A stretch of DNA of 64,000 nucleotides from an archaeon (GCA_020056635.1 JAGVHI010000004.1:2782-66781); one strand, 5' to 3'; numbered from the stretch's first letter, positions 7,052 to 40,647 are shown. Translations and numbers: made by a program. Notes: a model not told the origin generated them from the letters alone.

Positions 7052-7057
7052 GCGTTA

Positions 7058-8884
7058 TCACTTCTTGCGGAACTTCTTAATATTATCTTCCAATTCCGAG
7101 AATGCGGAACCGGAGGATGGGCCTTGCGAAGGGACATCCATCTGGGGGGAGGTGGATTCCTGCTCGACGCCCCCGCGCCCCATATGCGCCTTTACCTGCT
7201 TTCGCAGGTCATCGAGGGAAACCCCCTTCATGTTGTATATTTCAATGAGCCAAGGCATATATTGCCTTGCGTATCCCAGAACCTGCGTGTCGTCCTCTCC
7301 CCCGAGCGAGGCTGCGTTGAGCGGCTTTACAATTCCAGGAGGCTGCGCACCCTTAGGCTTTAGGGAGAGGGGTTCTGGAGCTAAAGCTTCCTTGGGGGCA
7401 ACAAGCTCTTCTATCTCATCCACTATTTGCGGCTTGGTTTTTGCAATCGATTCCGGAACATCGAACAGCCTTTTCTTTTCAGGAGCGGCTTTTGGAGCCG
7501 GCTTGTCCTCATCGCCCCAGTAAAATTCCTCGCTCTTGCTTGTGGGTTGCGTGGCTGGCGCTTCCTCTTGAGCGATCGCGTCTGCTGGCTCGGGAGTTTG
7601 TAATGTGCGCTTTGGGGCAGGGGGTTCATCTGTTTCGAGTTTCATTCTTTGCACAGGGGAGTATGTTTCAACTTGGTTTTTTGCTGCAGCGGCTCGCACC
7701 GGCTTTGGGACCACTTTTGGGGCAGGGGGTTCCTGCTCCTCTTGGGAAACAGGCGGGGGCTGAGCTTTCTTTTGAGCTGGCTTTTTCGCAGGGGTTCTTG
7801 GAAGCCAGGGAGAAGCAGAAGCTGATTTTGAGGGGGGTTGCGAGGGGGCAGTGCGGGATTGGGTGAGCCAGGGGAGCGAAGAGGGAACTGTGCGGGAGTC
7901 GGTTTGGGCGAGAGGTTGCTTTGCAACTGGAGCAGCCTCAGGCTCTTGCGAAGAAACAAGAGCGGAGGGCGCTATTGCAGGTTCGGGCTTAAAGCGTGAT
8001 TTTGCAAGCGAGGGCTTGGGAATTTCCAGCTCATCCTCAAGTGCGCGCGCTTTTGGAGCGGAATATGGTTCAGGCTCGAATTGCTTTGGCGCGGGTTTGG
8101 CAATCACTGGTGCGGGAGCTGTTGTGGGTTCGCTGGAGAGCGTTGCAATTGAAGCGGGGAGTGTTTCATTTGGAATTGAAATGGATGAGGCAGTGGGCTT
8201 TGCTGCTGGCGAGGGGGGGATTTGAGGGGCGAATATGCGCTGCGAGGGCTTTGTGATTTCCTGCCAGGGTTCTTGTGAGTAGGGGGCTTCTGCGGGCAGC
8301 GCTTGCGAAGCTGGTTGAGGAGATTGCACTTTGGGGGGAAGTTCTGCTTGCTCCGGGACTGAAATCACTTGGAGTTTTGCGGCCTGGGGGGCGGCTGCGG
8401 CCTTCTGCTGCGAAGGCTTTTTTGCGAATGAGTTTTTGAGCTTTGCGAAAAGCGATTTGTCCTCTTGCGCAAGCTGGGGAATTGAAACAGGCATAGCAGT
8501 TTCCTCCTCAAGCTTTTCAGGCGGGCGAAGCTCAATCGGGATGGAGCTTTGATCCTTTTTCCCGGTGCGCCGCTCCCGTATTTTTGCCTCTTCCTTTGAG
8601 TACTTGCCAAGCATCTCAAGCTCGGTTTGCGAAAGCGCCTGGGGTGCCTGCTGAATTGTCTTGTCGTATGAGCGGGCAGCGAGCCTGCGCTCAACCGATT
8701 GGGAGGAAATGAGCAGGTAGGAGTAGGAAAGATCGTTTAGGTCCTTGGGCTCGTAGTCTATGGGCTTTAAGTCCCCGGGCTTTACCGCAACCGGGCGGGA
8801 GGGGACCTGCATGGGCTGGCGCTCGATGGTGCGCACATAGTTGATTAGGGCGCCCAGGTCAGGGAGAGAGAGTTCCTCTGCCAT
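7058..8884 (-). CDS. P/A/Q-rich low-complexity protein with small structured N- and C-terminal ends (pilus-operon accessory protein)
   Basis: 608 aa. Its ATG shares one base with the ATPase stop (TAATG at 8882-8886). The central region of roughly 400 aa is proline/alanine-rich. Co-directional and tightly packed within the operon. Confidence 0.6.
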   Translation of the reverse strand: MAEELSLPDLGALINYVRTIERQPMQVPSRPVAVKPGDLKPIDYEPKDLNDLSYSYLLISSQSVERRLAARSYDKTIQQAPQALSQTELEMLGKYSKEEAKIRERRTGKKDQSSIPIELRPPEKLEEETAMPVSIPQLAQEDKSLFAKLKNSFAKKPSQQKAAAAPQAAKLQVISVPEQAELPPKVQSPQPASQALPAEAPYSQEPWQEITKPSQRIFAPQIPPSPAAKPTASSISIPNETLPASIATLSSEPTTAPAPVIAKPAPKQFEPEPYSAPKARALEDELEIPKPSLAKSRFKPEPAIAPSALVSSQEPEAAPVAKQPLAQTDSRTVPSSLPWLTQSRTAPSQPPSKSASASPWLPRTPAKKPAQKKAQPPPVSQEEQEPPAPKVVPKPVRAAAAKNQVETYSPVQRMKLETDEPPAPKRTLQTPEPADAIAQEEAPATQPTSKSEEFYWGDEDKPAPKAAPEKKRLFDVPESIAKTKPQIVDEIEELVAPKEALAPEPLSLKPKGAQPPGIVKPLNAASLGGEDDTQVLGYARQYMPWLIEIYNMKGVSLDDLRKQVKAHMGRGGVEQESTSPQMDVPSQGPSSGSAFSELEDNIKKFRKK

Positions 8885-10434
8885 TACTTATACACCGTGC
8901 TCCATTCGGAATTTTTCTTTGCCGCGGAAAGCACTTCATCCGGGTTCACGTAATAGCGCGAAACTATCTCGCCCACAGTGTTCACGTCCTTGTGATTGCG
9001 CTTGACCATCCATTTTATGATTTCGCTCTTGTCTTCCACGTCCTGGTCTATCTCTTTTTGCGTGAGCCCTGCGTAGAGCGAGAGGGTCGCGGCAAGCGTG
9101 ACCATCTTGTTCGCCTCCATCACCTTGTCTGATTTCACGTCCCAGCGGTAGAGCACATTGGGGTCACCGCCCTTCTGCACCTCTGCAAATTCCAGGGTGC
9201 GGCGGATGTTGAAGCGCCTGTGCCTGTACTGCACCACTATCCCTGAGAGCGCATCTATCATCTGCTTGGGAACGTTTATGGGCGCGTTTGTGAGCCTCTG
9301 CACAGTCTGCGCAGCATTGTCCGCATGCAGCGTTGCGTAGACCGCATGCCCGGTGTGCATAGCCTCGAAAAGGATTTCCGCCTCGCGCTGCTTTCGCACC
9401 TCCCCCACTATTATGCGATCAGGGCGCTGGCGCAATGCGTTTGCAAGCAGGTCGAGCATGGTGATTTCCCCTTTCCCCTCTGCGTTGGGCTCGCGCGTGA
9501 CCATCGGGACCCATTGCAGGAAAGAGGGGAGAGTAAGCTCGCGCGTGTCCTCAATCGAAATTATCCTGTGGTTTGCTGGAATCAGGCAGGAAATCGCATT
9601 TAGGAAAGAGGTTTTCCCAGAGCCTGTCCCTCCGGAAACCAGAAGCGACATCTCGTTCTGTATGCAGAGCCAGATGAGCGCCGCAACGTTGGGCGAGATG
9701 CAGTTGAGCTCAACCAAATAGGGAATGGTCCAGGGGTTCTTGGAGAATTTGCGTATGGTTATGGTGTTCCCGAAAGAGGAAATCGGCGCGAGGGTTGCGT
9801 TCACACGCTCGCCTGACCCAAGGTGCGCGTCCATGAGCGGGTTTAGGATGTTTATCTGCTTTCCCACTTTCCTGCCAATCATAGCTGCGTAATCGTAAAT
9901 CGACTCCTCGTTCTTGAGCGCGATGTTGGTGCGGCACCAGCCGTATTTCTTGTGGTACACCCACACGGGGTCGGTGGAAGAGTTGATTGCGACCTCTTCT
10001 AGGTGCTCATCGTGCAGCGGGGCTTCAAGCTCGCCTAGACCGAGCGTGTTCTGTATAAGATAGGAGGAGAGCACGGATTTTGTCTCATCCGAGAGAGAGG
10101 GGAAGTGCTTTGTGAGAAGCGACATCGCCTTTGCGTCGAATTTTGCGCGCACCTCTTCCCTTCGCTTCTGGTCCATTATTTCAGTGATTTCAAGCTTCAC
10201 GTTTGTGATGAGCTCGCCTTTCAGCGTGTTCAGCACGAGCTTGGTTCCCTCGGAAAGCCCGCGGACGGACATTTCGTAGTGCGGCACGAACTCTCCCTTG
10301 CGGTAGAGGATGCGCACCGAAACCGGGATTCCCTCGTTGTCAAACGAGTAGGACTCGATTTCCTTGCCTTTCATCGCTTCCGGCACAGGTATCTGCCCGG
10401 GCATGTCACGTTTTGCTTCGACCATCCAAACCAC
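8884..10434 (-). CDS. Type II/IV secretion-family ATPase (ArlI/FlaI/PilB/CpaF-like assembly ATPase)
   Basis: Walker A 'LVSGGTGSGKTSFLNAI', Walker B/Asp-box region 'RIISIEDTRELTL', 'PDRIIVGEVR' and a His-box 'TGHAVYATLHA'. Confidence 0.9.
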   Translation of the reverse strand: MVWMVEAKRDMPGQIPVPEAMKGKEIESYSFDNEGIPVSVRILYRKGEFVPHYEMSVRGLSEGTKLVLNTLKGELITNVKLEITEIMDQKRREEVRAKFDAKAMSLLTKHFPSLSDETKSVLSSYLIQNTLGLGELEAPLHDEHLEEVAINSSTDPVWVYHKKYGWCRTNIALKNEESIYDYAAMIGRKVGKQINILNPLMDAHLGSGERVNATLAPISSFGNTITIRKFSKNPWTIPYLVELNCISPNVAALIWLCIQNEMSLLVSGGTGSGKTSFLNAISCLIPANHRIISIEDTRELTLPSFLQWVPMVTREPNAEGKGEITMLDLLANALRQRPDRIIVGEVRKQREAEILFEAMHTGHAVYATLHADNAAQTVQRLTNAPINVPKQMIDALSGIVVQYRHRRFNIRRTLEFAEVQKGGDPNVLYRWDVKSDKVMEANKMVTLAATLSLYAGLTQKEIDQDVEDKSEIIKWMVKRNHKDVNTVGEIVSRYYVNPDEVLSAAKKNSEWSTVYK

Positions 10435-15883: not shown

Positions 15884-15898
15884 TGCTGGGTGGTTTGG

Positions 15899-16735: not shown

Positions 16736-16747
16736 GGGGTGGGATTC

Positions 16748-18260: not shown

Positions 18261-18349
18261 GCGCGCAAGCATGGGATGAAAATTGGGGAAAGATGCGCAA
18301 TAGAGTAAGGGAGAGGGGAATGCGAGACTGAAAAAATAGCGGTTTGGAG

Positions 18350-24526: not shown

Positions 24527-27500
24527 TTATTCGTCCCTTAGCCTGCCTTTCGGGTCGCCCTGGTAGATGTCCATGTGGCGGGCGTAATTGCTTGAGGAGT
24601 AGAATGCGTCAGCGAGGTTGTAGCCCTGGTAGTAGCGGGGGAATAAGAGGTCGGAGTAGGAGGGTGCATGGACATTGGGCTCGGTCACCTCGCCCATAGC
24701 GCCAGCCGCCCCTTCCGCAACCATGTCGCCTATGTACCCGCCCCATGGGTTGCTGTAGTTCCAGAATTGGGTCTGGTTCACCATCGTGGTTTCATACGCA
24801 AGCAGGGTGCCGTTTGGATAGTATGTGCCGTTCGGAAGCCTATATGAGCCCCATGAGATGAGCGTGCCTGCCGGGAACGTGACATTAGATGAGAGGCGCA
24901 CATTCGGGGTGAAATAATTGTCGTATGAATAATCAATAAAGTAAGAGCTGTAGGAATAGAGGTATTCGCCGATTCCGCCCGGGGCCCAGGTGTTGTTCGG
25001 GGCAGCGTGGTAAGTGTACCATTCCGCCATTGAGCTTCTGCTTTGCGCATCATTGTAGCCCCATGAGATGTACATGAGCACGTTGGGCTGGTTATGGATG
25101 TATATGCTGCCATCCGTATCGACCACGAAGCGCGATGGGTCGACCCCCATTGCCTGCAGGCGGGACATTGCGGTGTCCATCCGCACGTTGTGTGGGTAAT
25201 TGATGTATCCCCCCCACAGGCTCTTATCAAATACGAATATGCCATTGTTCTTATTGCCATAAGCCCGGTCCACCATGGAAGTCGAATTTTGCACAGTGTA
25301 GCCATTGAGGCGCGTGGCTAGGTAGGTGCCGCCCATTTTTGCTGAGGAGAAAACAGGCATGGCGTCATAGGTTCCGCTGTAGTATGGCATAGTCGGGGGG
25401 CCAAGGTGGTTATCGCAGAAATTCTGGGATATTGAAACCAGGTGGGCATCTATGGAATAGTAGTCATCGTATACAGGGCAGCCGTGGAACCTGAATGGGA
25501 CGCCCCTTGTGAGGACGATGTAGTTTATTTTCTGGGTCAGGTTGTTCGAGCTTAGGTAGTCGCGTATGGGCTGCCGTATGTGCGATTCCGCGTAGGGCTC
25601 GGTCACGTCCATGTAAATTGCAGTGAGGTTTGTGATGTTCAGGATGTGCATGACGCCCCGCGCTTGGGCGAAATAGTTGCCTATCTGCTGGCTTTCCGCG
25701 CTGGCATTGTTCAGCACGAGCAGGACATCGTCATAGGATTCGTACGGGCAGCCTGCGCGGCTGCAGAAATCCACAGGGATAGAGAGCGAATTGGAAACCA
25801 CTGGTATTATTGTGCCGTTTGCAAGCATGATGTTTAAGACCAGGCTTACAGGCGCTGGGCCCCCGTATGCTGGGAGCGTCGGGCAGAGGAACCGTATTGA
25901 GGGCGTTGCGTTCTTGTCCATGCCAGCGCCATTATTGAGCGTGCCGTCTGGCAAAACGCCGTCGTAGCAATTCGTAGGCCCGAGATTCCAGGTGAAATCA
26001 ATGGTAGAGCCGACAGGGGCGTCAGGGACAAGCGTATAGTTGAAAAACACTGGGTCAAGGACATCGGGCGCGGTGTTGTTCGCGCTTATTGCAAGCGCAT
26101 AAGTGGATTCGTTTGCGCATTGTGCTGTGTAGTTCCACTGGTTGTTCGTTTCGTCAGATTCATTTATGGAATTGGCAGCATCAGCGAGCAACGTGAACAG
26201 GGCAGGGCCGGGAGCAGTGCAGTTGAGCGTGACATTCTGCGTCTTGTTCATAAGCGGGTAGATAAGGCCTGTTGAGAAGTTCGCAGCCAGGGTATCGTTT
26301 TGATACGCATAGGTCCAAGTGGGATAGGCAATCACATTGCCGAGGTTTTTGGTGTATGTGGTCACTATGAAAGGAACGCCCACAAGGTGCGGTATTGAGA
26401 GGCTTTCAAGGGACGCGCTTGCCGCCAAATCCCCGACCTCTCCACAGTGCACTGTCGCATTCCAGCGGTTGTTGGACTCGTTCTGCTCGAACACCTCGCC
26501 TTGGGCATCCGCAACGGTCTGAAACTCGTACAGGCCGTAATCGGGGCAGGTGATGCTTGTAGAATTGAGCCATGTGCCGTAGCTCATGGTTGGCATGCTG
26601 AAGTTTGCAATAAGCGCGCCATTGAAGAATACGTGCGTGTGCGAAGGGGGCGAGGAATTTGTCCCGTAATTATATGTGTATATGGTTTGTGAGCTTGAGA
26701 CGTTGATTTGCTTGGGCAGCAATAGTTGCAGCATATTGACGCCCGATCTAAGGTCCGGCAGGCTGCCGCACGGGACCGTGTAGTTCCATTCGTTGTTAGC
26801 CTCGTCCCATTCATCAGCTTCAGATGATGCATCCGCAATCACACGGAATTCGAAACCGCCTGATGAAGTGCAGTTGAGCGTGGCGTTGCGGTAGTGGGTG
26901 GCCCCTGGCGCAAGCGGTGCAGTGGTGTTGTAGCTTGTGAGATTGGCCCCTCTGAATTGCACCTGCGCAAGCGTCTGGATTGGGACTGGCTCGTCGCCCT
27001 CATTTTTTATGCTTATGGAAACGTTGAAGGGAATGCTTACATTATGCTGGGATGAGAGCGCCGCGAGGTCTGCGGATGGGGTGAGGTCCGGCTTTCCCGA
27101 GCAGGAGTTGGGGAAAAGACCGGTGTCGCATGTGCCGCTGCAGCAGTCAGAGCCGCTGCTGCATTCGCCCCCTTTCGGAAGGCAGGAGACGCAGTTGCCG
27201 CTATTGAGCGTGTCGCACAGCAGGCCGGAGCAGCATTCGGAAGTGGCAGCGCAGGATTGGCCCTCGGGCAGGCACTGCGAGCAGATGCCCCCGATGCACA
27301 CTAGGCCAAAGCAGCATTCCGGGTTGAGTGCGCATGTGCCGCTGCCTTCCGCATAGCAGCATCTTGCATAAGGCGTTGATTCCCCTTCGCATGTGAGGCC
27401 AGTGCAGCATGTTTCGTTTGAAAACCATGCAGAGCAGTATTGCGTGGCATTGCGGCACGAGATGCATGGGACTGGGATTTCGGCAAAATTGTTAATCTCG

Positions 27501-28441
27501 CTGGATTCGCTGATATTGCCCCCGGAGTCTGCCAGCAGCGCTGCGTATGATGCCTGCACGCATATGAACGGGGTGGAAAAATCCGAGTACTGGCTGCTTG
27601 GAAGGAACCCGATTGAGGCATTGCTTTCGTTTTCGCAGTATTGTGAGGCGCACGGTGGCTGGCGCCAGCTTATATTTGCGGTTGAGGGGCCGGAAGGGCC
27701 TGGCCCTATGTTGAGGATGCGCAAGATGAGGGGCACCGAAGGCTCGCCTGATGAGGAGGGGGAGGAAAGCGCCACAAGGTCCGGGGGCTGCTGGCAGGTT
27801 GAATTCGAAAGGGAGTCCGTGAAGCATGTGAGCGAGACGCAGCAGTCAGAGCTTAAGGAGCATTGCTGGGTTTCTGAGCCGCAGCCGCCGCATGTGCCGT
27901 ACCTGCAAGCCACCCCGCCGCAGCAGTCCGAGCTGTCGATGCAAAACTCGCCTGCTGCGTTGCACACATCTGGAGGCGGGAGAATTAGCGGCTCCCTGCC
28001 GTCCATGCTGTTTCCGCCGCCAGTGGACCTTGAATAGTCAAGCCTTATGTCAAGCGATATATATGGGTCGACCGGCACGTAGCTCGAGGGGACAGTTACC
28101 TTTGCGCTCATGCCCGGGAGAAGCTCGATTGGAGTTGAAAAATTTGTGGAGTTGGTTATGTTCGATGCCCTGTCCCGAATGTATATCGAGTGTAGGAAGA
28201 GCCCCTGCCTTCCTGCGTTTTTTACCATAATGATGAGCCCGTTTTGTATGGCTTTTGCGTCGGTTATTGCAAGCGGCTTCTCATTGAGCCAGTATATTTT
28301 TGACCCTAGGTAGAGGCTCTGCGGGCTTGACGTGAACCCTTGGGTGATGAAATAGACGCAGGACAGGGTGAGTATTATGAGGACTGCAAGCGCGATTAGA
28401 TACTCGGAAGAAGACTGCCCCTTTGAACCTGCGCTGCACAT
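24527..28441 (-). CDS. Giant surface protein (1,304 aa). Order: class III (prepilin-type) signal peptide, conserved N-domain, knottin-like Cys modules, about 4 CARDB-like domains, and a ~410-aa uncharacterised C-terminal domain.
   Basis: 'MCSAGSKG|QSSSEYLIALAVLIILTLSCVYFI' (Q+1, E+5, hydrophobic helix). CARDB-like end motifs 'SEADEWDEANNEWNYTVPCG', 'FEQNESNNRWNATVHCG' and 'INESDETNNQWNYTAQC'. Many N-x-S/T sequons. Confidence 0.85.
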   Translation of the reverse strand: MCSAGSKGQSSSEYLIALAVLIILTLSCVYFITQGFTSSPQSLYLGSKIYWLNEKPLAITDAKAIQNGLIIMVKNAGRQGLFLHSIYIRDRASNITNSTNFSTPIELLPGMSAKVTVPSSYVPVDPYISLDIRLDYSRSTGGGNSMDGREPLILPPPDVCNAAGEFCIDSSDCCGGVACRYGTCGGCGSETQQCSLSSDCCVSLTCFTDSLSNSTCQQPPDLVALSSPSSSGEPSVPLILRILNIGPGPSGPSTANISWRQPPCASQYCENESNASIGFLPSSQYSDFSTPFICVQASYAALLADSGGNISESSEINNFAEIPVPCISCRNATQYCSAWFSNETCCTGLTCEGESTPYARCCYAEGSGTCALNPECCFGLVCIGGICSQCLPEGQSCAATSECCSGLLCDTLNSGNCVSCLPKGGECSSGSDCCSGTCDTGLFPNSCSGKPDLTPSADLAALSSQHNVSIPFNVSISIKNEGDEPVPIQTLAQVQFRGANLTSYNTTAPLAPGATHYRNATLNCTSSGGFEFRVIADASSEADEWDEANNEWNYTVPCGSLPDLRSGVNMLQLLLPKQINVSSSQTIYTYNYGTNSSPPSHTHVFFNGALIANFSMPTMSYGTWLNSTSITCPDYGLYEFQTVADAQGEVFEQNESNNRWNATVHCGEVGDLAASASLESLSIPHLVGVPFIVTTYTKNLGNVIAYPTWTYAYQNDTLAANFSTGLIYPLMNKTQNVTLNCTAPGPALFTLLADAANSINESDETNNQWNYTAQCANESTYALAISANNTAPDVLDPVFFNYTLVPDAPVGSTIDFTWNLGPTNCYDGVLPDGTLNNGAGMDKNATPSIRFLCPTLPAYGGPAPVSLVLNIMLANGTIIPVVSNSLSIPVDFCSRAGCPYESYDDVLLVLNNASAESQQIGNYFAQARGVMHILNITNLTAIYMDVTEPYAESHIRQPIRDYLSSNNLTQKINYIVLTRGVPFRFHGCPVYDDYYSIDAHLVSISQNFCDNHLGPPTMPYYSGTYDAMPVFSSAKMGGTYLATRLNGYTVQNSTSMVDRAYGNKNNGIFVFDKSLWGGYINYPHNVRMDTAMSRLQAMGVDPSRFVVDTDGSIYIHNQPNVLMYISWGYNDAQSRSSMAEWYTYHAAPNNTWAPGGIGEYLYSYSSYFIDYSYDNYFTPNVRLSSNVTFPAGTLISWGSYRLPNGTYYPNGTLLAYETTMVNQTQFWNYSNPWGGYIGDMVAEGAAGAMGEVTEPNVHAPSYSDLLFPRYYQGYNLADAFYSSSNYARHMDIYQGDPKGRLRDE

Positions 28442-28466
28442 CGCACAAATAGGGCGCGCATGCTGC

Positions 28467-28479
28467 TTTTAATATTATA
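28467..28479 (-). promoter_or_regulatory. TATA-like box upstream of the 1,304-aa gene
   Basis: The minus strand reads 'tataatattaaaa', centred about 32 nt upstream of the ATG at 28441. Confidence 0.35.
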
Positions 28480-28552: not shown

Positions 28553-31500
28553 TCATTCATTGTTGGGCTGGGTTGGAGGCTGCTGTTTTTCAATCTCCTC
28601 TAAAGCCTCATCAATGACATGCTGGTCCCAGCCCTCTTCTTTCAGCCTGTCAGTTGTGTATTCGCGCGGGAAGCCCAGCTCCTGCGAGTGCCGCATATAT
28701 GCCTTGATCTCCGCAAGATGCTCCTCCTGCGATTTTATTTTCCGCGCCTCCTGCTTCTTCCTCATTGAGGAGAGGGTGATTGCGGCAAGGCCCGAGAGGA
28801 GAGTGAGTGAGACAATAACCTCGAGCGCAAATTGGGGTATCCGCACTTCCTGCTGCTGGGGCAGCGGTGCGGGCAAGTTAGGAGAGGAGATTGGCGGATT
28901 TAGGATTCGGAGCGCCTGCTCTGAAATTTTGCCGAAGAGCCAGGCGATGGTGCCGCTGGAGCCGTTGCCCCCAAGCGGCGGAGTGATGAGCCCGAACGGG
29001 TCCGATCCCTGGTTTGCAAGCGAGCAGTTGGATAGGAGAGGGGGCATCCCGTCCTCTGTCCCGCATGAGCTCAAGTCTGTGCACAAACGCTCCTGTGTCC
29101 TGTTCTGCAAGCAGGGGCCCCAAAGCGTGCATTCCCAGTTTGGCGTGCAGCCAGAGCCGCCCCTTCCGCCCCCTCCTCCGCCGGAGCTGCCCGAACCGCC
29201 AGAACCTCCCCCGGGGCCTGATGGCGCGCATGCGGCGCACGGGCCGCCGCAATCAACCCCAGCCTCGCCGTTATTCTGAACCCCGTCTGAGCATGTGGGG
29301 CACGCAGCGCATGAGCCTCCGCAATCGATTCCAGTTTCCTGCCCGTTCAGCACGCCATCAGAGCAGGTGGGGCATGTGATGCATGAGCCTCCGCAATCAT
29401 TGCCGGTCTCGTCCCCGTTTTGCATTCCATCGGTGCAGGAGGAGCTTGAGCCGCATGCCCAATAGAGCGTGGGCCGGTCGCTTGCAGTGCCGCAGGAATT
29501 TTCATCGTAGCAAGTGCGTGAGAGCTGCCCGCTCCCTTCACAATCTTCTTCCCAGCCCGAGCATATCCAGGATTCGGGGCAGATGCCATCAAGGCGGAAG
29601 AAGCCAACTTCGAATGGGAGCAGCGTGGGCGAGAACGTAGCGCCCGAATGCGGGATTATTTCGTAGCCCGTTGCAGTGACCTTGGTGATGCCCCCTATAT
29701 TCTCGTTGAAGGTGATTGTTGGGGAAACCGAAACGTTGCGCTTGTTGATAACTGTCATTGCCCTGTGCGGTGAGCTCACTGCGAATATTTCCAGCAAATC
29801 GTCCTGCGAGCCTGCTGCAGCCATCTGGGCGCCGTAGGGGTTGAGAGAGCTGAACAGCTTGCGAACGCCAAACATCGGAGTCGTTGAGAAGTTGTCAAGC
29901 GGCGAGGCTGACCACATGCCGTATCCGTACATGTGCTTGACGCCCCGGTCATGATAAACGCCCGGATAGCCCGACGTGTCGGCAACGTAGCGTGGGTCAG
30001 GGGTGTTGTAGCCGCGCGAATTCCCCTCAAAGTGCATCTCGTGGGTTGCGTTGCTCCTTGCAAGCCAGTTTAGCATTGAAGCCCCCCACATTGCGCCGTA
30101 GTCCCCTTTGAGCGGGTTGAACTCCGGTACGTACATTATTGGCGGGATGCAGGTGTCGCAGAGCGCAAAATTGTATTCCGAGTATGCCATCAGGGGTGTG
30201 TCGTTTCCTGGTCTGAATTGCCTGATTTTTGAGTAAGCCCAGTTCGGGACCACGTAGCCGTAATAGTAGGTGTTGTTGTCGTAGTCGTGCAGCGACACGA
30301 AATCCGCATTCGTGCGGTTCAGGAATTGCGCAAGCTGCGGGTAGGAATCGTCCGCCATTATGCCTGCCGAATCCCATCCGCCGACTTTGGCGGTTGGGAC
30401 GCGCGATTTTATTGCGGAATATGCGGTGTTGAAGAAATTTATGAAATTTTCCGGGCGCGAATCAGACTGGTTGAAGTCTGCCCAGTCGTTCGGGTGATTA
30501 TGGCCCGAGCATCCTTCCTTGCCGTCAACCTCGTTCCCTATTGCCCAGTACCAATCGCTGAAGTTGCCGCAGAAATTCCAGGTCCCGTTCGTGCATAGGC
30601 TGTAGAAATGCTCGGTTACATCGGCAAAGTAGCCCGCACACTGGGCGAAGTCGGTCGGGACGCTGTAGTTTTCGCCGCAGTGGTTCACTCTGGTAACCAT
30701 CATTTCGCCAGGGCACCCGACCCCGTTGGAATCCTCAAAATTCACGTAGGGGGTTGCGCTCAAGTTGAGAAGGACGTGCCTGATGTCGCGCTCCAGGTTG
30801 GTGTAGTTGTACTGGCCGCTTCCGCTCCAGTTGTACGGCACCGTGTTGTAAAGGATGCTCTCGGGTCTTGCGCCGTATGAGTTTATGTACGGGTCAGGAC
30901 CGGGCCAGAAGGCCGCGCCAAACGGGTGTATCCTCACGCGAATGTAGGAAGTGCCCACATCGCGGTAGTGCTGGAGTATCTCGGGTGAGGTCCAGTAGTT
31001 TTCGTCCTTGCCGTTGTAGCCGTAGTGCAGCCCGACCTGCTTTGTGCCCCTTGAGAAATCCACGCTTGCAATAGGGGTTATGCTGAAGTTTCCGGAGAGC
31101 AGAACGCTGTTTATGCTGATTAGGTGGCCCCCGTGAGTGCAGGCGCTTGCCTTGCGCAGCCGGAGAGTGTGGCTCCCTGCAGTTATTGGGATGGTGAGGT
31201 TGAGGTAGGAATAACTGCTGCCGTTCACGTCAAAGACTGCCTGCTGCGCCCCGTCCAGGTCCACTGCAAGCCGCCGAGGTTCAGGCGGGCATAATGAGGC
31301 GCCGCCTGCGGCGGATATTGAAACTGATGCAGAGGAATCGGAATCGAAAGTGATGTTCATGGAGTGGTTGAGGACCTGCCCGTACTGCGGGACGGTGCCT
31401 ATGTAAAGCGCGCGCATCCCATACTGGCCGGCAATCTTGCCGCCCCACAGCATTTCGTAAGAGTGCGTTTCATGGGCCTGCTCCGAAGGGGGGCGAGTGC

Positions 31501-34500
31501 TTGCGGATATCAGGGTTGTGCCGCAGAGGCGGGTGGGGAAATAGATTGTCCCCTGGGATGAGGAGTCGAGCAGCATGTCCTGGGGCAGGCCGCAGCTTTC
31601 TGCCCGTACATAGTATGCTGTTGATGGTCTGAGGTCGGCGAGCAGGATGCTGGTTGCGCCGACGTGCGTGAAAGGCAGCAGGGTGACGTTCTCAAGCTCG
31701 TTCCCGTACGTGGAGAAAACTGCCGCATAGTCGCGGGTTGCAACGCCCTTGGCAGTCCCGTCGGCTGATGAGAGGCGTTCAAAGAACATTGCAGGCGAGC
31801 TGACCTGGCTGCTGTTGAACACATAGAGCACGTTTAGGAAATTGTCAAACGTGCTTGGCACTGTCGGGGATATCTCTATCCTCCACTTTCCAGCATGCTC
31901 GTCCGGCCCCAGAGCAGACGTGTTCGGGTAGTTCCTGCCGTCAACCCAGAACTCGTAGCCGCTGCCGCCTATGCGGGTTAGGTTCCAGCCGTTTGGGCCC
32001 GGAAGGACGGTCTGCACCGCAAGCCCGATGTAGTTTGATTTTATGAAAGTGGTGTTGCTGTAATTGCCGTTGAAAGCCGTGCCGTTGAAAACTTCTATGT
32101 GGCCGGGCACGTCTGAGGAGATTAGGGACCCGACTATGGTGGGCTGGTCCTGGAAGTGCATCACGAAGCTTTTCCTGAAAGACGGGTCGGTTGAGTTGAC
32201 GCGGTCAAATATCACAATGTTCCATACGTTTAGGTTGCTCCAGTTTGACGGCGGGGCATGGTATGGGGAGTACAGGTTTGCTGGCTTTCCATCCTTGAAA
32301 AACACTATTTCGCGCGTGAAATTTGAGAGCTTGGAGCGGTTGTAGGAAAGCGTCGCATCCCCGGAAATATATAAGTAATTTTCGTTTGCTTCATAGTGCG
32401 GTATTGAGCCTGCGTCGTATGCGGGGGTGTTTGTGAGCTGGTCGTACGTGAATATGCGGGGGAACATCATCTGCCCGCCATCATTCGAAACGTTGCGTAT
32501 TATTCCTGAATCGTTCCAAAGCAGGATGTTGCCCTCCCCGTCGCTGAATGACTCGTTCGGGTCATAAACTGTTATTGTGTTGTGCGCTATTGTGCGCTGG
32601 TAGTAGTTGCTCCAGTGAGGTGAGCCGTAACCTCCTGCAGGGCCGTATGCGCCGGAATCCACAACCTGGTCGCCCAAGTAATAAAGCGAGAAGCTGTTTG
32701 CGTCGCGGTGCAGGTGGCCTGAGCGCTGCTTGGGGTTGTTTGAGAAGGTGAGCCAGACCGAGTCATTGCCCCAGCTTGTGCGCGAAACAAGCGTGCCGGA
32801 ATTGCGGGAGAACCAGTCCAGTGGAAGTTCCGTGTAATTCCTCCTGTTTGCAGTCTCGTCAAACCAGAGCAGTTCCCAGAGCCGGTTGTACCAGCGGTAT
32901 GTCTGCTCAAAATTGTTCTGGTGCGTTGAGATGAACCAGTTCGCATATTCGTTGTAGGGCGAATTTCCGTAGTAGGATATTATGGAGGGGGCAGTCTGCC
33001 CAAGCGAGGGAGGGGGGCCGTAAACGTCGTAGTCGCCCCAGCTTGCCTTGTAATCGTTTGGCTTGAGCAGGTAGGCGTTGTGGTTGATTACTCGCAGCTG
33101 CAGCCAGGGGTTCTGCGCAAACCAGTCAGTGCCTGTTGCAGTTGTGAGCTTTGCGGCCATGGAAGTGTGAGTCGGCATTCCGGAGAAGCTGTAGCCTGTG
33201 CCCCAGTTCCATCCCCCATTGTCAGAGCCGGTGTAATTATAGATTCGGTAGAACTCAAGGAAGCGGGCGTATGCGATATCAGTCTGGTTGAGCACCAATT
33301 CAGCAAGCGTTGCGTTCTGTGCCTCAAGGTCAGGGTCGTACGCGAGCGCAAGCAGCGCGGTCGCCCAGCCGGAGTTCACCTCGAAAGAGTGGCTGAACAC
33401 GTTTGCGTCGCTCTCGTCCGCAAAATCACGCCAATGGTAGTAGGTTGAAAAGCGCGCGAGTGCCGTACTGAAGTTGGCGCGCTCCTCAGAGGAAAGGTTG
33501 TTGTAGAGCCAGTCGTACGCAAGCCCGGATTCCGAGCTCCATGCAGTGTAGAAATATTCCGCATCGTCCTTTCCAGAAAGCGCTGTGCTCGGATCGTCGT
33601 CCCAATAGTTCCATGTCGCATTGTACGTTGCAAGCAGCGTGTTTAGCTCGCGGAGCATGAATTTCGAGCGGTTAAGGTATGTTTCGTTGTCCGTCATCCA
33701 GTATAGGAACGTGCCTATCCGGATAAGCGAGCCCCATGAGCCGCCGTATGAAGTCGGGTAGCCCTCTCCACAGACATTTGCCTGCGAGAGGTTGGATGTG
33801 TTTAGCAGCACTGCGACCCAGTTTGCCTGGTTTGGCGAGGACATGTTGCAAGCCCAAGTGGCACGGCCGTTTGTCTGGTTCTCGTATTCTGATTTGAGCA
33901 CGTTGAAATCGTCGGTTAGGAGCGGCGTACCCAAATCGAGCTTCTGCCTGATGACTGGAATCATTTCCTGCGTCACGTAAAGGCGTGGGTGGTCCTCACG
34001 AATCGATATATTGTGCCCGGGGGACTGGAAGTTCATGATAAGGAATTTTGAGCTCACATTGCCGCATTGGATGTAGTATGTGTTGAGGTTGTTAGTCTCG
34101 TCCGACTCGTTCACCTCGAGCCTTGCATCCGCCTCAAGCACAAGCTCAAGCACCCCATCATGCATGCAGCGCAAATTCAATTCATCAATATCCGATTCGC
34201 CCGAAGCAAGCATTGGGGCATCCGCATGCGCAACCTCCTGGCCGTCAAAAGTCGCGTAAGTCGAGGATTCCGAGGCATTTGCGCTGCCCCTGTTCGTTGT
34301 GGTGAGATTGAAGGTGAAAGTCGAGTTCAGCTCGTGGGGGATATAGAATTCCTCTTCGCTTGCAGTCGCAACCAAATCTGGCATCGGGGGGAGGCAGTCC
34401 GCATAGCCATCCCAATGGTTGTTCGATTCGTTGGTCTCGTTTTGCTCGTTTGCCGCATCAACCGACAGTTGCAAATCAAGCCTTCCCTCCTGCCTGCAAG

Positions 34501-36040
34501 AAAGCAGGAGTTCGTGGCTGAGTACTGAATCCGGGGCAAGAGGCGGGATTGAAAGCTCGGTTGGGGAATCCTCGCCTATTTCAATCAGGAGGGACGACTG
34601 GGCGCTCTGCGCGGTCCCAAGGTTCGTAATTGTGAGAGGAAGGCTGAAGAGTTCGCCATATGGCTGCGGCTCGAGAAGCGAAGAGTCATCAACCAGCAGG
34701 CTCAGGTCCGGCGAGCCTGTGCATGATGGGGGGACCAAGAGTATGTTGCACACTTTGCTGCAGCATTCGGCTGGGGAGGAGCATGCGTTCCCTGCTGAGA
34801 GACATGAGTTGCACGTGCTTGTGGCAGGGTCGCAAACGCCCGAGCAGCAGTCCGCACTTGTGGAGCATGCGATTCCGTCTTCAATGCATTTTGAGCATTT
34901 GCCTTCAACACAGAGCAGGGAGGAGCAGCAGCCGTCATTGGAGGAGCAAGCGCTTCCTTCGATTGCGCAGCACGCCCGCATCGGCTTCACTCCGCTTGCG
35001 CACGAAAGCCCTTCGCAGCATGGCTCGGATCTCGAGCAGAGGCCGCCGCCCTTGGCGCACTTGCAAGGGAGCAAAATTTCGGATGAAATAGTGGAAAGCA
35101 AAGCGGGCTGCCTTGCAATCTGATTGGATGCTGCTGCAAGGTACGAAAGCTCGCTGCACTTGAATGGGAGGAGAATGTCCCTTGATTCTCCGCTTTTGAG
35201 CATTGGGACTGCCACAAGGAGCTCTTCTGTGCAATCGGCTTGCTGGCAATCCGAAGGGCTCCAAGTCAGCGTTGCGGAGGAAGGGGGGGATGGGCCAAGC
35301 CCGATATTGGTTGCTTGGAGGATGACCTGCGAATTTGGCTGCTCGCCCTGGCTTGGGGAAAGCGTGATTATCACTTCGGGGGGCTGGGAGCAGGAGAGCT
35401 TATTCCCGCTGCCTGTGCAGAGCAGCTCCCCGCAGCATTCCTGGCTGGTTTTGCAGGATTTGCCTTCGCCCCCGCACCCGCCGCAGAGCCCGTACCTGCA
35501 TTTTTGCGAATCGCAGCATTCCAAATTCGATTTGCATATCTCACCCTGCGAGTTGCACGAGCTTGGCGGGGAGAGGAGGATTTCCTCGCTTGGCGGGGTT
35601 TTTGAGGTTGGGGCGCCGGCCTGCTCAAGCGAGTAGGAGAACCGAAGGTCGATTGGAATTAGAGATGGGCCATAATCCGGAATATCTGCAGGGATTGAAA
35701 CCTTGGCTGCGGAGCCTGGCGAAAGAAATGCAGGGGAATCGAGCTTGATTTCCTGTGCTGTGCCCCCTTGCGCAGTGATTGAAACCTGCTCAAGCGAAAT
35801 CGCCTGCGTGCCGCTATTCTTAATGAGCAGAATTACGCCCCCCTGCACAAGCTTTGCGTCGGTCACAGCAAGCGGCTTTTGCGTTATCCAATAAAGTTTT
35901 GATTGCGCCTGCTTTATCGGGGAGGCCGAGGAAGCCGCCTGGTTTATGAGTGTGGCTGAGATGAGGGCAATCACCAAAACTGCGGAGAAGACAGCTAGGA
36001 ACTCGGAAGAAGACTGACCCCTCGATTCAGACCTCCCCAT
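28553..36040 (-). CDS. Giant surface protein (2,495 aa). Order: class III signal peptide, conserved N-domain, Cys modules, CARDB-like domains, heparinase II/III-like region, clan GH-A-like barrel, Cys-repeat stalk, G/S linker, C-terminal TM anchor and cytoplasmic tail.
   Basis: 'MGRSESRG|QSSSEFLAVFSAVLVIALISATLI'. 'SGHLHRDANSFSLYYLGDQVVDSGAYG...QRTIAHNTITV' is a heparinase II/III C-terminal hallmark. 'WYWAIGNEVDG' is a GH-A NE-type motif. There are three copies of 'C-[ST]-DG-x-[QL]-N-x(1,2)-E-[TA]-G-x-DCGG-x-C'. The TM segment is 'FALEVIVSLTLLSGLAAITLSSM'. Confidence 0.9.
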   Translation of the reverse strand: MGRSESRGQSSSEFLAVFSAVLVIALISATLINQAASSASPIKQAQSKLYWITQKPLAVTDAKLVQGGVILLIKNSGTQAISLEQVSITAQGGTAQEIKLDSPAFLSPGSAAKVSIPADIPDYGPSLIPIDLRFSYSLEQAGAPTSKTPPSEEILLSPPSSCNSQGEICKSNLECCDSQKCRYGLCGGCGGEGKSCKTSQECCGELLCTGSGNKLSCSQPPEVIITLSPSQGEQPNSQVILQATNIGLGPSPPSSATLTWSPSDCQQADCTEELLVAVPMLKSGESRDILLPFKCSELSYLAAASNQIARQPALLSTISSEILLPCKCAKGGGLCSRSEPCCEGLSCASGVKPMRACCAIEGSACSSNDGCCSSLLCVEGKCSKCIEDGIACSTSADCCSGVCDPATSTCNSCLSAGNACSSPAECCSKVCNILLVPPSCTGSPDLSLLVDDSSLLEPQPYGELFSLPLTITNLGTAQSAQSSLLIEIGEDSPTELSIPPLAPDSVLSHELLLSCRQEGRLDLQLSVDAANEQNETNESNNHWDGYADCLPPMPDLVATASEEEFYIPHELNSTFTFNLTTTNRGSANASESSTYATFDGQEVAHADAPMLASGESDIDELNLRCMHDGVLELVLEADARLEVNESDETNNLNTYYIQCGNVSSKFLIMNFQSPGHNISIREDHPRLYVTQEMIPVIRQKLDLGTPLLTDDFNVLKSEYENQTNGRATWACNMSSPNQANWVAVLLNTSNLSQANVCGEGYPTSYGGSWGSLIRIGTFLYWMTDNETYLNRSKFMLRELNTLLATYNATWNYWDDDPSTALSGKDDAEYFYTAWSSESGLAYDWLYNNLSSEERANFSTALARFSTYYHWRDFADESDANVFSHSFEVNSGWATALLALAYDPDLEAQNATLAELVLNQTDIAYARFLEFYRIYNYTGSDNGGWNWGTGYSFSGMPTHTSMAAKLTTATGTDWFAQNPWLQLRVINHNAYLLKPNDYKASWGDYDVYGPPPSLGQTAPSIISYYGNSPYNEYANWFISTHQNNFEQTYRWYNRLWELLWFDETANRRNYTELPLDWFSRNSGTLVSRTSWGNDSVWLTFSNNPKQRSGHLHRDANSFSLYYLGDQVVDSGAYGPAGGYGSPHWSNYYQRTIAHNTITVYDPNESFSDGEGNILLWNDSGIIRNVSNDGGQMMFPRIFTYDQLTNTPAYDAGSIPHYEANENYLYISGDATLSYNRSKLSNFTREIVFFKDGKPANLYSPYHAPPSNWSNLNVWNIVIFDRVNSTDPSFRKSFVMHFQDQPTIVGSLISSDVPGHIEVFNGTAFNGNYSNTTFIKSNYIGLAVQTVLPGPNGWNLTRIGGSGYEFWVDGRNYPNTSALGPDEHAGKWRIEISPTVPSTFDNFLNVLYVFNSSQVSSPAMFFERLSSADGTAKGVATRDYAAVFSTYGNELENVTLLPFTHVGATSILLADLRPSTAYYVRAESCGLPQDMLLDSSSQGTIYFPTRLCGTTLISASTRPPSEQAHETHSYEMLWGGKIAGQYGMRALYIGTVPQYGQVLNHSMNITFDSDSSASVSISAAGGASLCPPEPRRLAVDLDGAQQAVFDVNGSSYSYLNLTIPITAGSHTLRLRKASACTHGGHLISINSVLLSGNFSITPIASVDFSRGTKQVGLHYGYNGKDENYWTSPEILQHYRDVGTSYIRVRIHPFGAAFWPGPDPYINSYGARPESILYNTVPYNWSGSGQYNYTNLERDIRHVLLNLSATPYVNFEDSNGVGCPGEMMVTRVNHCGENYSVPTDFAQCAGYFADVTEHFYSLCTNGTWNFCGNFSDWYWAIGNEVDGKEGCSGHNHPNDWADFNQSDSRPENFINFFNTAYSAIKSRVPTAKVGGWDSAGIMADDSYPQLAQFLNRTNADFVSLHDYDNNTYYYGYVVPNWAYSKIRQFRPGNDTPLMAYSEYNFALCDTCIPPIMYVPEFNPLKGDYGAMWGASMLNWLARSNATHEMHFEGNSRGYNTPDPRYVADTSGYPGVYHDRGVKHMYGYGMWSASPLDNFSTTPMFGVRKLFSSLNPYGAQMAAAGSQDDLLEIFAVSSPHRAMTVINKRNVSVSPTITFNENIGGITKVTATGYEIIPHSGATFSPTLLPFEVGFFRLDGICPESWICSGWEEDCEGSGQLSRTCYDENSCGTASDRPTLYWACGSSSSCTDGMQNGDETGNDCGGSCITCPTCSDGVLNGQETGIDCGGSCAACPTCSDGVQNNGEAGVDCGGPCAACAPSGPGGGSGGSGSSGGGGGGRGGSGCTPNWECTLWGPCLQNRTQERLCTDLSSCGTEDGMPPLLSNCSLANQGSDPFGLITPPLGGNGSSGTIAWLFGKISEQALRILNPPISSPNLPAPLPQQQEVRIPQFALEVIVSLTLLSGLAAITLSSMRKKQEARKIKSQEEHLAEIKAYMRHSQELGFPREYTTDRLKEEGWDQHVIDEALEEIEKQQPPTQPNNE
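29225..29440 (-). repeat. Three tandem ~72-nt (24-aa) coding repeats inside the giant gene
   Basis: aa 2201-2272: 'CTDGMQNGDETGNDCGGSCITCPT / CSDGVLNGQETGIDCGGSCAACPT / CSDGVQNNGEAGVDCGGPCAACAP'. The DNA copies are visibly similar (e.g. gcatgagcctccgcaatc at about 29310 and about 29381). Confidence 0.85.
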
Positions 36041-36126
36041 TGGGGGAAGATAATGGATAGATTGTTTTTAATGCTATTCTCGATGGAACCGAGAGAAAAA
36101 TGTCTCGGGATCGACAATCTCCTGAA

Positions 36127-36200
36127 CGACAAAAAAACTATCGTTCAGTCGAAAAAAAACTATCGTTCAGTCGAAAAAAAACTATCGATGCCTCGAAAAC
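36127..36200. repeat. About 3.4 tandem copies of a 22-bp unit (tcgaaaaaaaactatcgttcag)
   Basis: Units at 36127-36148 (diverged 5' end), 36149-36170, 36171-36192 (diverged 3' end) and a partial unit at 36193-36200 that runs into the att-like repeat. Confidence 0.9.
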
Positions 36201-36347
36201 CAGGTGAGGGAATCGAGTGCTAGGAGGTTAGGTTTTTCTCTCTCTACCTCATAAAAGCCCTATTCTTTTGCCCTCTTTCGCCCTGCTAGGCTGCCAATTA
36301 GGGTGAAACTACCCCGAAGAATGGCTTATTTACTCCCTGAAATTCAT

Positions 36348-37545: not shown

Positions 37546-37733
37546 TACTCCACCCCATAAGGGTTAAACAAACAGGGCTTTATACGCCTTTCTCTAAGAC
37601 GTGCTAGGCTGCCTTATTTACTGAAAGACTATTTCAAAACAAAGACTAAAATATTGGTTTTATGGCTTTTACGTCGGTAAATCGGATAAACTGAACCTGG
37701 CGTTTTCTATTCTCCGACGTAAAAATAACTTTA

Positions 37734-39163: not shown

Positions 39164-40234
39164 ATGGAAGTCGTTCCAGCAACCGTGCTTGATGCGTCAG
39201 AGCCTGTTTCCAAAGCCGCGTCCGAGATTACGAAGAACGGGACCCTCGTGATTGTGACAAAGGGGAAGAGGTACCACGGGATTATTGATGACAGGGCGCT
39301 TCGCAATTCGAGGAACGACACCTCGAAAACCAAGTGCGAGGCGCTCTGCGAGCGCGCGCCGTTCGTGAAGATAAATGACACGCTAGTTGAAATATGCAAG
39401 GCATTTTTTGCCGGGAGGTTCAGCGCGCTTCCCGTCGTGAGCGGGAATACCATAGAGGGCGTGATAACCCGGGCTGATGTGATAAAGCTGCTGCTTGCAG
39501 AAAAGCTGCTTGATGGGAAAAAGGTGTCCGAGGCAATGAGCTCCCCTGTGCTCACGATTGCGCACAATGCGGGGATGGGCACTGCGCGAAAGCTTATGAG
39601 GGAGAAGAACGTGCGGCGGCTCGTGGTGACCAAGAACGAGAGGCTTGCAGGGATAATATCGACTTTCGATTTGGCATCTATAGCGGCGCATGAGCGCGAT
39701 GTGAGGCCGTCGGGAATGAGCGAAAAGTACAGCGCAGAGAAGGAATGGGTGGAGCGGTTCATGCGAGATTCGATTGAAACCATCACGCCAGACGCGCCCC
39801 TAGGCGACGCGGCAAGGAAAATGCTGGACACGAAAGTTGCGTCCGTGGTCGTCGTAGGCGGGGGGAAGGCAGTCGGGATAATCACTGCAAAGGACCTGTT
39901 CGAAACTGCGCTGGTGCTAAAGGAGGCGGACAGGGTTTTCATTTCCGGCTTGCACGACTTGGAGAAGGAATATTACCACGAGGTGCACGAGGAGTGCGAG
40001 AAAACGCTTTCCAAGCTCTCGAAAATCGAGAGGATTGGCTCGCTTGCGCTGCATATCAAGAAATACGGGAACCAGTATGCCATACATGCGAGGCTGAATG
40101 CAAGGCAGCTCACAACCGCAAGCGCAAACGGGTTTGATTTGCACGCATGCGTCGCGCAGGTGCTGGAGGAATTAAAAACACAGGTGGAAAAAAGGAAACC
40201 TAACAAGATGCATGAAAGAGGGCATAGAAGATGA
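39164..40234 (+). CDS. Protein with four CBS domains and a C-terminal HPF/RaiA-like (ribosome hibernation factor-like) domain
   Basis: Four CBS-like units (e.g. 'GIIDDRALR', 'GVITRADVIKLL', 'GIISTFDLASI', 'GIITAKDLFE'). The C-terminus 'VFISGLHDLEKEYYHEVHEECEKTLSKLSK...ALHIKKYGNQYAIHARLNARQLTTASANGFDLHACVAQVLEELKTQVEKRK' follows the HPF/RaiA pattern. Confidence 0.7.
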   Translation: MEVVPATVLDASEPVSKAASEITKNGTLVIVTKGKRYHGIIDDRALRNSRNDTSKTKCEALCERAPFVKINDTLVEICKAFFAGRFSALPVVSGNTIEGVITRADVIKLLLAEKLLDGKKVSEAMSSPVLTIAHNAGMGTARKLMREKNVRRLVVTKNERLAGIISTFDLASIAAHERDVRPSGMSEKYSAEKEWVERFMRDSIETITPDAPLGDAARKMLDTKVASVVVVGGGKAVGIITAKDLFETALVLKEADRVFISGLHDLEKEYYHEVHEECEKTLSKLSKIERIGSLALHIKKYGNQYAIHARLNARQLTTASANGFDLHACVAQVLEELKTQVEKRKPNKMHERGHRR

Positions 40235-40647
40235 AAAAAGCCCAGGTGAGCGCGGAGCTCCTAATAATTGTCGGGTTCATCGCGCTTGTGATGGTCCCGG
40301 TCCTTTTCTCAATATATGTTCGGGGCGGGGAATACAAGGATAGGATAGGGGTATCGCAGGTTAACATTGCCGCGGGAAGGATTGCGCAGGCAGTGGATTC
40401 GGTAGGGTTCCTCGGGGGCAGGGCGAAAATCGTGCTTGAGGTGCAGATGCCAAAGGGCGTGAGCGCCAGGGCGCAAGGAAAGGAGATCCTTTTCTCATTT
40501 GAGAACTCGGGGCAGAGGAACGACATTGTGAAAACAACCCGGTTTGCGATGAGCGCTCCAGACCTTGATAGGCTCAATGCGACCGGGACTTATTTTGTTG
40601 AAGTGATGAATGAGGATGGGATTGTGTCGCTCGATGTAAGGGAGTAG
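40231..40647 (+). CDS. Small class III signal peptide (archaeal type IV pilin-like) protein
   Basis: 'MKKA|QVSAELLIIVGFIALVMVPVLF' has Q+1, E+5 and a hydrophobic helix (DUF361-type Q-x-S-x-E motif). ATGA overlap with the upstream CBS gene. Confidence 0.6.
   Translation: MKKAQVSAELLIIVGFIALVMVPVLFSIYVRGGEYKDRIGVSQVNIAAGRIAQAVDSVGFLGGRAKIVLEVQMPKGVSARAQGKEILFSFENSGQRNDIVKTTRFAMSAPDLDRLNATGTYFVEVMNEDGIVSLDVRE

Follow-up and report, generated by a model that had tools for sequence, protein, structure and literature searches.

Proteins of the archaeal family PF04021 (Class_IIIsignal/DUF361) include the EppA-processed pilins of Methanococcus, and the substrates of the Sulfolobus bindosome are solute-binding proteins of ATP-binding cassette (ABC) transporters, which possess class III signal peptides and no stalk. 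Large class III/signal-peptide proteins encoded near archaeal pilus loci have been noted earlier as possible adhesins or minor pilins, and the bindosome is mentioned in PMC4858521. In bacteria, modular pilins are typified by PilB and PilC of Streptococcus sanguinis; a survey built on the bacterial pilin signature IPR012902 recorded more than 1,200 such proteins in 264 architectures, the most extreme multi-domain case named being a protein of 860 amino acids (aa) (PMC8179133). Here we describe an archaeal gene for a protein of 1,304 aa, located at 24527..28441 on the minus strand of a 64,000-nucleotide (nt) stretch of DNA (GCA_020056635.1 JAGVHI010000004.1:2782-66781), hereafter the window, in which positions are counted from the first letter. 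The open reading frame (ORF) runs uninterrupted from its ATG start through 1,304 codons, and the window is archaeal in content, encoding Trm1, ribosomal protein S8e, and a class I aminoacyl-tRNA synthetase. The protein is already public in NCBI and JGI/IMG, where its contig measures 94,419 bp, the IMG name being "uncharacterized protein (TIGR03790 family)."

The 1,304-aa product is probably a giant modular type IV pilin-like surface display protein, the head of which may act on or bind glycan. The parts of this reading are not equally firm. Its modular architecture, which follows from paralogy and family matches, is solid, unusual, and close to certain; activity of the head is surmised from the sequence, and so is the actual incorporation of a 1,304-aa protein into a filament, which is doubtful.

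The N-terminal module and the tandem paralogue

The upstream gene encodes a tandem paralogue of 2,495 aa, and BLASTP aligns the two products at 33% identity over residues 1-677 (E=1e-95). The alignment is continuous through the leader, a head of ~150 aa, a first cysteine (Cys)-rich block, a divergent region of ~110 aa, a second Cys-rich block, and two CARDB domains. An initial annotation of the window, made from the sequence, had proposed that the two proteins share a pilin-type N-module and Cys block, and the pairwise comparison bears this out; the ORF is real and contains every peptide quoted there. The CARDB-like domains that it described are likewise found by Pfam (CARDB, PF07705), which recognizes three stretches in the 1,304-aa protein at 92.6 bits against a gathering threshold of 22.7. 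The third of these has no counterpart in the paralogue, where homology stops at residue ~669. Beyond the common front end of pilin-type leader and head, Cys-knot blocks, and CARDB stalk, the distal parts differ, as had also been claimed: one protein ends in a TIGR03790 domain, and the other possesses a heparinase II/III-like lyase domain and a weak GH39-like region. Pfam matches the paralogue to CARDB (two stretches), to Hepar_II_III_C (42.6 bits), and, weakly, to GH39; NCBIfam adds a partial match to a HepB-type lyase model (E=5.8e-53).

The two proteins differ as well in how they end. In the 1,304-aa protein, residues 10-38 are the sole strongly hydrophobic segment, so that, as initially noted, this protein is without a C-terminal transmembrane segment; the paralogue possesses a second such segment at residues 2401-2426, followed by a charged tail. 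The 1,304-aa protein contains 46 N-X-S/T sequons, where 17 are expected, and a total of 54 Cys residues, both of which favor an extracellular location.

The leader is MCSAGSKG, a short charged sequence ending in Gly, and is followed by QSSSEYLIALAVLIILTLSCVYFI, a hydrophobic stretch with Gln at +1 and Glu at +5. The combination of G(-1), Q(+1), E(+5), and hydrophobic helix is kept in the N-module, and Q9 and E13 (+1 and +5 for a cut after G8) are invariant in an alignment of 14 homologous sequences. A motif scan for [KR][GA]Q-x-S-x-E plus a hydrophobic stretch located four such N-termini in the window, those of the two giants and of proteins of 221 and 138 aa.

Homologues of this module surfaced only with a profile built from three sequences. 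Residues 1-226 as a single-sequence query found none, nor did a two-sequence pattern scan of 185,579 species-representative genomes. The three-sequence profile recovered 12 database proteins, all of 149-241 aa, two of which (P0162 and P0164) weakly match PF04021, and one of which is annotated as Candidatus Micrarchaeota. These small proteins stop at a Cys exactly where the first Cys block of the giants starts. The AlphaFold2 model of the module, based on the 14-sequence alignment (predicted local distance difference test, pLDDT, 88.1), consists of a helix at residues 11-34, a second at 40-52, and an eight-strand β-sandwich. Its best Foldseek match in the PDB is the type IV pilin of Pyrobaculum calidifontis (8fk7_A; E=1.2e-5, probability 1.0, 135 of 136 target residues aligned), and the archaellum protein FlaF (4p94) is matched at 2.7e-3. 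By prediction, then, the module possesses the helix-then-β-sandwich organization of pilins and archaellins. On these comparisons the N-terminal ~160 residues are homologous to small archaeal pilin-like proteins, and the pilin-like nature of the module, argued for by homology, motif, and predicted fold alike, is very likely, in keeping with the initial annotation.

One homologue deserves mention in its own right. P0163, a protein of 198 aa from another organism (on an ENA contig of 1,145 bp), joins the leader and part of the head of the N-module directly to a transmembrane segment and a cytoplasmic tail, which closely resemble the C-terminal end of the larger, 2,495-aa paralogue (…KIKSQEEHLA…EGWD.HVIDEA…). 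This short protein may represent a giant one that has collapsed, or else an assembly artefact.

Two relatives share the back half of the 1,304-aa protein. P0009, a fragment of 1,445 aa which is 43% identical to it, contains two successive units of stalk, spacer, and TIGR03790 domain and aligns continuously with its back ~900 residues. P0010 (1,004 aa; GCA_053535515.1), the nearest relative to share this back half, combines Cys knots and CARDB domains with the same spacer and with a TIGR03790 head that is 50% identical; it aligns over Cys block 2 and two of the CARDB domains (residues 329-666) and over the spacer/TIGR03790 end. The head alignment was obtained with phmmer, local full-protein BLASTP having given a single high-scoring segment pair in the stalk. 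The spacer domain always precedes the TIGR03790 domain in these closest archaeal relatives. The back half thus recurs elsewhere, and module shuffling is real at both ends.

We surmise the following mode of display. The precursor would be inserted into the membrane, and a signal peptidase of class III would cut between G8 and Q9. The α1-helix would then either stay as a membrane anchor or let the protein be taken up by the filament machinery as a tip or minor subunit. A stalk of Cys-knot and CARDB domains, rich in disulfides and heavily N-glycosylated, would project the head, so that the TIGR03790 domain would stand tens of nanometres away from the cell and may there bind or process extracellular glycan. 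In the tandem paralogue the same front end carries the polysaccharide lyase-like domain.

A filament machinery is encoded within the same window. Two T2SSF/TadC-like genes at 5091..7051(-) match Pfam T2SSF at 7e-15 and 1e-17, and a secretion ATPase at 8884..10434(-) matches T2SSE at 4.8e-40; against a FlaI-type model the ATPase scores 286.8 bits, which lies under the model cut-off. These genes are 14-23 kb from the gene for the 1,304-aa protein. Three genes for KaiC-like ATPases are found near the filament locus (14027-15551 and 18344-19231).

Several observations weigh against the product being a pilin-like display protein. The giant genes are not part of the pilus locus, and a scan of window ORFs for an A24-type prepilin peptidase revealed none among those covered. 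The extra C-terminal transmembrane segment of the paralogue fits poorly with the extrusion of a protein into a filament. P0010 starts with an ordinary N-terminal transmembrane segment or signal anchor instead of a pilin module, and no pilus genes are found near it. Finally, residues 1-159 of both giant proteins fail to match PF04021 even at E<=10; the homology of the giants to small proteins that bear PF04021 is nonetheless clear.

The C-terminal transmembrane segment of the paralogue and the plain anchor of P0010 make simple anchoring a serious rival, to which we assign an appreciable but minor probability. The protein would then be an ordinary membrane-anchored surface protein or adhesin, in which the helix serves as export signal and anchor, much as class III signal peptides do for the non-filament binding proteins of the Sulfolobus bindosome, and which never enters a filament; it might be a long envelope or attachment protein used, for example, in DPANN-type host contact. 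Consistent with this, the paralogue has an anchor at either end, P0010 places the same cargo on an ordinary transmembrane segment, the genes are situated as just described with no peptidase nearby among the scanned ORFs, and stalks of CARDB, PKD, or immunoglobulin (Ig) domains are typical of adhesins. Simple anchoring accounts less readily for the clear homology to small proteins of pilin size in which Q(+1) and E(+5) are invariant, for the predicted pilin-like fold of the N-module, and for the presence of small paralogues and an assembly machinery within the same window.

The TIGR03790 domain and its possible function

The initial annotation suggested, with hesitation, a resemblance of the C-terminal region to TIGR03790. 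The NCBIfam model confirms it: residues 904-1285 match positions 1-312 of 316 at 119.4 bits (cut-off 67; E=2.2e-34). The conserved core starts at V906, a trivial difference from the start at residue ~895 given originally. An exhaustive phmmer search that covered 1.84 billion cluster representatives recovered 1,114 proteins at E<=1e-3, of which 486 reached E<=1e-10, and a scan with the pattern GYxSWG[SY]ND confirmed at least 551 loci in species-representative genomes. The loci belong mainly to Acidobacteriota, Ignavibacteriota, Chlorobiota, Bacteroidota, Armatimonadota, Planctomycetota, and Gammaproteobacteria, with a few in Thermoplasmatota. The domain falls outside every Pfam family.

Fusion partners indicate, at the level of sequence, that members of the family are secreted or surface proteins. 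Among 82 members scanned, 26 carry a type IX secretion system (T9SS) sorting domain and 4 a dockerin; FlgD-Ig, TPR, PKD, and CARDB domains also occur, and long members add β-helix, NHL, and peptidoglycan-binding domains. In the Thermoplasmatota homologues the order is signal peptide, TIGR03790, Ig/CARDB stalk, and C-terminal transmembrane segment; this order is the reverse of that found here, so the TIGR03790 domain is again membrane-distal. Export as a PEP-CTERM/exosortase substrate was considered and rejected: the C-terminal sorting signal is absent from the 1,304-aa protein, and 4 of 156 family proteins fit the C-terminal regular expression, with a convincing tail in P0097 only.

AlphaFold2, given 82 sequences, models the domain confidently as a two-lobed α/β structure (pLDDT 82.1; predicted template-modelling score, pTM, 0.83). 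An insertion of ~65 aa is shared with P0009 and P0010 and absent from bacterial members. The best fold matches are periplasmic-binding, LacI, and glycosyltransferase-B (GT-B)-like two-lobe proteins (best E=0.029), and since these are weak (template-modelling score <0.2) we leave the fold unassigned. A sequence profile of the domain reached chance level only against the PDB (best 5isu, E=0.0047, 19 bits). Conserved polar residues (N911, S914, S917, R928, T978, R1044, D1072, Y1124, S1126, W1127, N1130, D1131, S1163, D1239, E1254, and D1296) are situated mostly at strand ends, and four of them belong to the motif S1126-W-G-x-N-D1131. Their placement agrees with a ligand or substrate cleft. The 1,304-aa copy retains 45 of the 57 family columns conserved at >=85%. 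Four near-invariant residues are replaced (R290 to Y, Q357 to G, S358 to G, and W412 to H, in C-domain numbering), at positions that flank the lineage-specific insertion; P0009 and P0010 retain all four, except for a Gly at the Ser position in P0010. Two hydrolase assignments were rejected, namely an SGNH hydrolase, suggested by the "GxND"-like SWGSND motif, and a hydrolase with a Ser nucleophile elbow, neither a GDS block nor a conserved His being found in the alignment.

We tentatively propose that the head is a surface-displayed module that binds or processes glycan, as a lectin or as an enzyme. Hints toward glycan come from the heparinase II/III-like cargo of the twin paralogue and from the dockerin or β-helix domains of some TIGR03790 members. 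At 11-20 of 80 bacterial TIGR03790 loci, moreover, the neighbors include a PrsT-type TPR protein (in some acidobacterial loci at 375.7 bits against a cut-off of 312.2), sigma-54 activators, RmlD, and GT4 glycosyltransferases. This neighborhood signal stems largely from Acidobacteriota and may reflect lineage synteny, which is the first of several points that count against a glycan-active head. Foldseek found no match for the domain model at E<=1e-3 in the PDB or BFVD, an activity or ligand is known for no member of the family, and a literature search for TIGR03790, CHP03790, and IPR022265 found no paper that mentions it in the library searched. The four near-invariant residues are lost, and it may therefore be that this head is inactive or has diverged in function.

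It is quite conceivable, though in our estimation less likely than not, that the head is not an enzyme at all: it would be a non-catalytic, lectin- or receptor-like ligand-binding module, or one that has degenerated in this copy. The substitutions just mentioned point that way, as do the adhesive nature of the fusion partners, the resemblance, weak as it is, to two-lobed binding and GT-B-like proteins, and a family alignment with no conserved His or Cys and no recognizable catalytic motif. All of these fold matches are non-significant, however, and the conserved Ser, Asp, Glu, Arg, and Asn residues clustered at strand ends would suit catalysis equally well.

Layout of the gene pair, rarity of the fusion, and neighboring genes

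That the long ORF is artefactual, through either a chimeric assembly or a fused gene call, is highly improbable: although the source looks like a metagenome-type contig and the neighboring gene is called differently by IMG (2,061 aa) and NCBI (2,495 aa), the frame is unbroken over 1,304 codons, the identical protein is found in two sources, P0009 matches the back ~900 residues and P0010 the two segments noted above, and the paralogue confirms the front ~670. The coordinates of the features are presented in Table 1.

Table 1. Features of the 1,304-aa gene, its paralogue, and pilus-related genes in the window
Feature	Position	Strand	Basis
Class III (prepilin-type) leader MCSAGSKG, aa 1-8, predicted cut between G8 and Q9	28418..28441	-	Motif [KR]G-Q-x-S/T-x-E, then hydrophobic stretch; cleavage predicted
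Hydrophobic α1-helix of pilin module, aa 9-38	28328..28417	-	Kyte-Doolittle mean 2.67 over aa 10-38; AlphaFold2 helix 11-34
Pilin head, second helix and eight-strand β-sandwich, aa 39-159	27965..28327	-	AlphaFold2 pLDDT 88.1; PDB match 8fk7_A
Cys-rich block 1, aa 160-216, 11 Cys, C-x6-C-x5-CC-x4-C-x4-C	27794..27964	-	Kept in paralogue and stand-alone 221-aa copy
Divergent region of ~110 aa between Cys blocks, aa 217-325	27467..27793	-	Aligns with paralogue; no Pfam match of its own
Cys-rich block 2, aa 326-447, 24 Cys, four to five knot-like units	27101..27466	-	Sub-threshold Pfam Toxin_7, UPF0506
Three CARDB (Ig-like) domains, aa ~448-775	26117..27100	-	Pfam CARDB 2e-26, three stretches
Spacer domain, aa 776-895	25757..26116	-	Common to P0009 (twice) and P0010
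TIGR03790 domain, aa 896-1304, membrane-distal head	24530..25756	-	NCBIfam 119.4 bits, cut-off 67
Lineage-specific insertion of ~65 aa within TIGR03790 domain, aa ~1167-1232	24746..24943	-	pLDDT 42-58, low confidence
TATA-like box TATAATATTAAAA, 25-37 nt 5′ of the ATG of the 1,304-aa gene, possible own promoter	28466..28478	-	Read from sequence
Upstream tandem paralogue, 2,495 aa: shared front end, heparinase II/III-like lyase, weak GH39-like region, Cys repeats, C-terminal transmembrane segment, cytoplasmic tail	28553..36040	-	
Stand-alone pilin module with one Cys block, 221 aa	54785..55450	-	BLASTP E=3e-16 to aa 1-226 of the 1,304-aa protein; same leader motif
138-aa protein, leader MKKAQ before VSAELLII..., candidate further pilin	40231..40647	+	Motif scan and translation; no family match
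Type IV filament machinery: two T2SSF/TadC-like genes, 608-aa gene without family match, secretion ATPase	5091..10434	-	

A TATA-like box lies 25-37 nt upstream of the ATG in each of the two giant genes, which may perhaps be transcribed separately. The two are the only giant fusions found, since all 12 database homologues of the N-module and all 45 of its loci in metagenomes are small, the latter being confined to stop-to-stop frames of at most ~360 aa. The initial annotation had seen in the pair a cassette-like effector family. A common front end with swapped cargo in two tandem genes and the shuffling of modules are indeed real, but the fused members number two; the survey that it proposed, of the cargo following the N-module, yielded no wider pilin-plus-cargo family, and a broad cassette family on a pilin chassis is, on the sequences searched, not seen. 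Nothing indicates an "effector" in the sense of a toxin or secretion substrate.

Repeated six-Cys, knottin-like units of the form C-x6-C-x5-CC-x4-C-x4-6-C occupy 27101-27964(-), where Pfam Toxin_7 and UPF0506 score weakly and below threshold. The same units occur in the 2,495-aa protein (residues 162-440 and 2154-2339), in P0010, and in the 221-aa pilin. The shorter IMG call of the 2,495-aa gene is named "predicted GNAT family acetyltransferase," which looks wrong because the family matches are to CARDB, heparinase II/III-like, and, weakly, GH39 domains. Directly upstream of this gene is an island of low GC content (36000-38000; 0.41 vs ~0.55), encoding a basic ORF of 115 aa, HNH-like by eye, and a membrane protein of 292 aa without a family match. 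A perfect 22-bp tandem repeat in 2.6 copies is found at 36131-36187, ~90-150 nt upstream of the start of the gene. Island and repeat may represent a mobile insertion or a regulatory element.

Further surface proteins appear to be encoded elsewhere in the window. At 15890-17503(+) and 47108-50572(-) are Cys-rich proteins, one of them of 927 aa, with lipobox-like N-termini (…LLVGC, …LFGCC, …FFGCTG, and …FFGCIG) and no Pfam match, which are probably archaeal surface lipoproteins. At the window edge, 118-1335(+) encodes a 405-aa ORF with a CARDB domain and a Cys-rich C-terminus; another large surface protein, extending beyond the window, may end here.

Comparison with known systems

The Thermoplasmatota surface proteins (L026, identical to P0025, of 1,243 aa, and L042, of 1,290 aa) resemble the protein described here in being archaeal and in holding a membrane-distal TIGR03790 head on an Ig/CARDB-like stalk. 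They differ in possessing a Sec-type signal peptide, an N-terminal head, and a C-terminal transmembrane anchor, and in having no pilin module. Compared with the TIGR03790 family at large, the match extends over the whole model, above its cut-off, with 45 of 57 conserved columns kept; here, however, the domain stands at the C-terminus and not immediately after a signal peptide, contains the ~65-aa insertion that only P0009 and P0010 share with it, and has four residues replaced. With the substrates of the Sulfolobus bindosome the protein shares a class III leader on a large extracellular protein of non-filament type; the sequences are unrelated.

The small PF04021 archaeal pilin-like proteins are homologous over leader, helix, and β-sandwich head, with invariant Q(+1) and E(+5), but at 149-241 aa they end where the giants continue, and the giants do not score on PF04021. 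An affinity of the source with DPANN/Micrarchaeota-like archaea is hinted at by the name of one of the N-module homologues. That an archaeon, possibly of DPANN type, uses the pilin module as a carrier of giant glycan-active heads, both lyase/GH-type and TIGR03790, with the latter an unrecognized carbohydrate-active or carbohydrate-binding fold, is a speculative and improbable extension of our reading. If it were true, the filament or pilin anchor would be a device that presents enzymes, and the cell would use it to feed on or attach to polysaccharides of a host or the environment. Irrespective of this, TIGR03790 gains a functional handle, as a widespread extracellular domain now set beside a lyase-bearing twin and always found at the tip of a stalk, and this context suggests glycan-related functions that can be tested.

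The bacterial modular pilins (PMC8179133) follow the same proposed logic of presentation, in which functional modules are grafted C-terminally onto a small N-terminal pilin module. An N-terminal pilin module plus non-pilus modules, by which that survey defines a modular pilin, is what is found here, the modules being CARDB and TIGR03790; the signature IPR012902 is not applicable to archaea, and its motif is replaced by an archaeal class III leader with Q(+1). The archaeal proteins, which are putative filament components, are of 1,304 and 2,495 aa vs 860 aa and possess a long Cys-knot/CARDB stalk and, in one paralogue, a C-terminal transmembrane segment. The public TIGR03790 annotation of the gene and the concept of bacterial modular pilins were already known; giant archaeal pilin-module fusions would be a further, far larger form of that concept. 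Should the modular-pilin reading hold, the principle would extend from bacteria to archaea, in proteins ~1.5 to 3 times as large as the 860-aa one and with cargo that is enzyme-like or uncharacterized rather than a simple adhesin.

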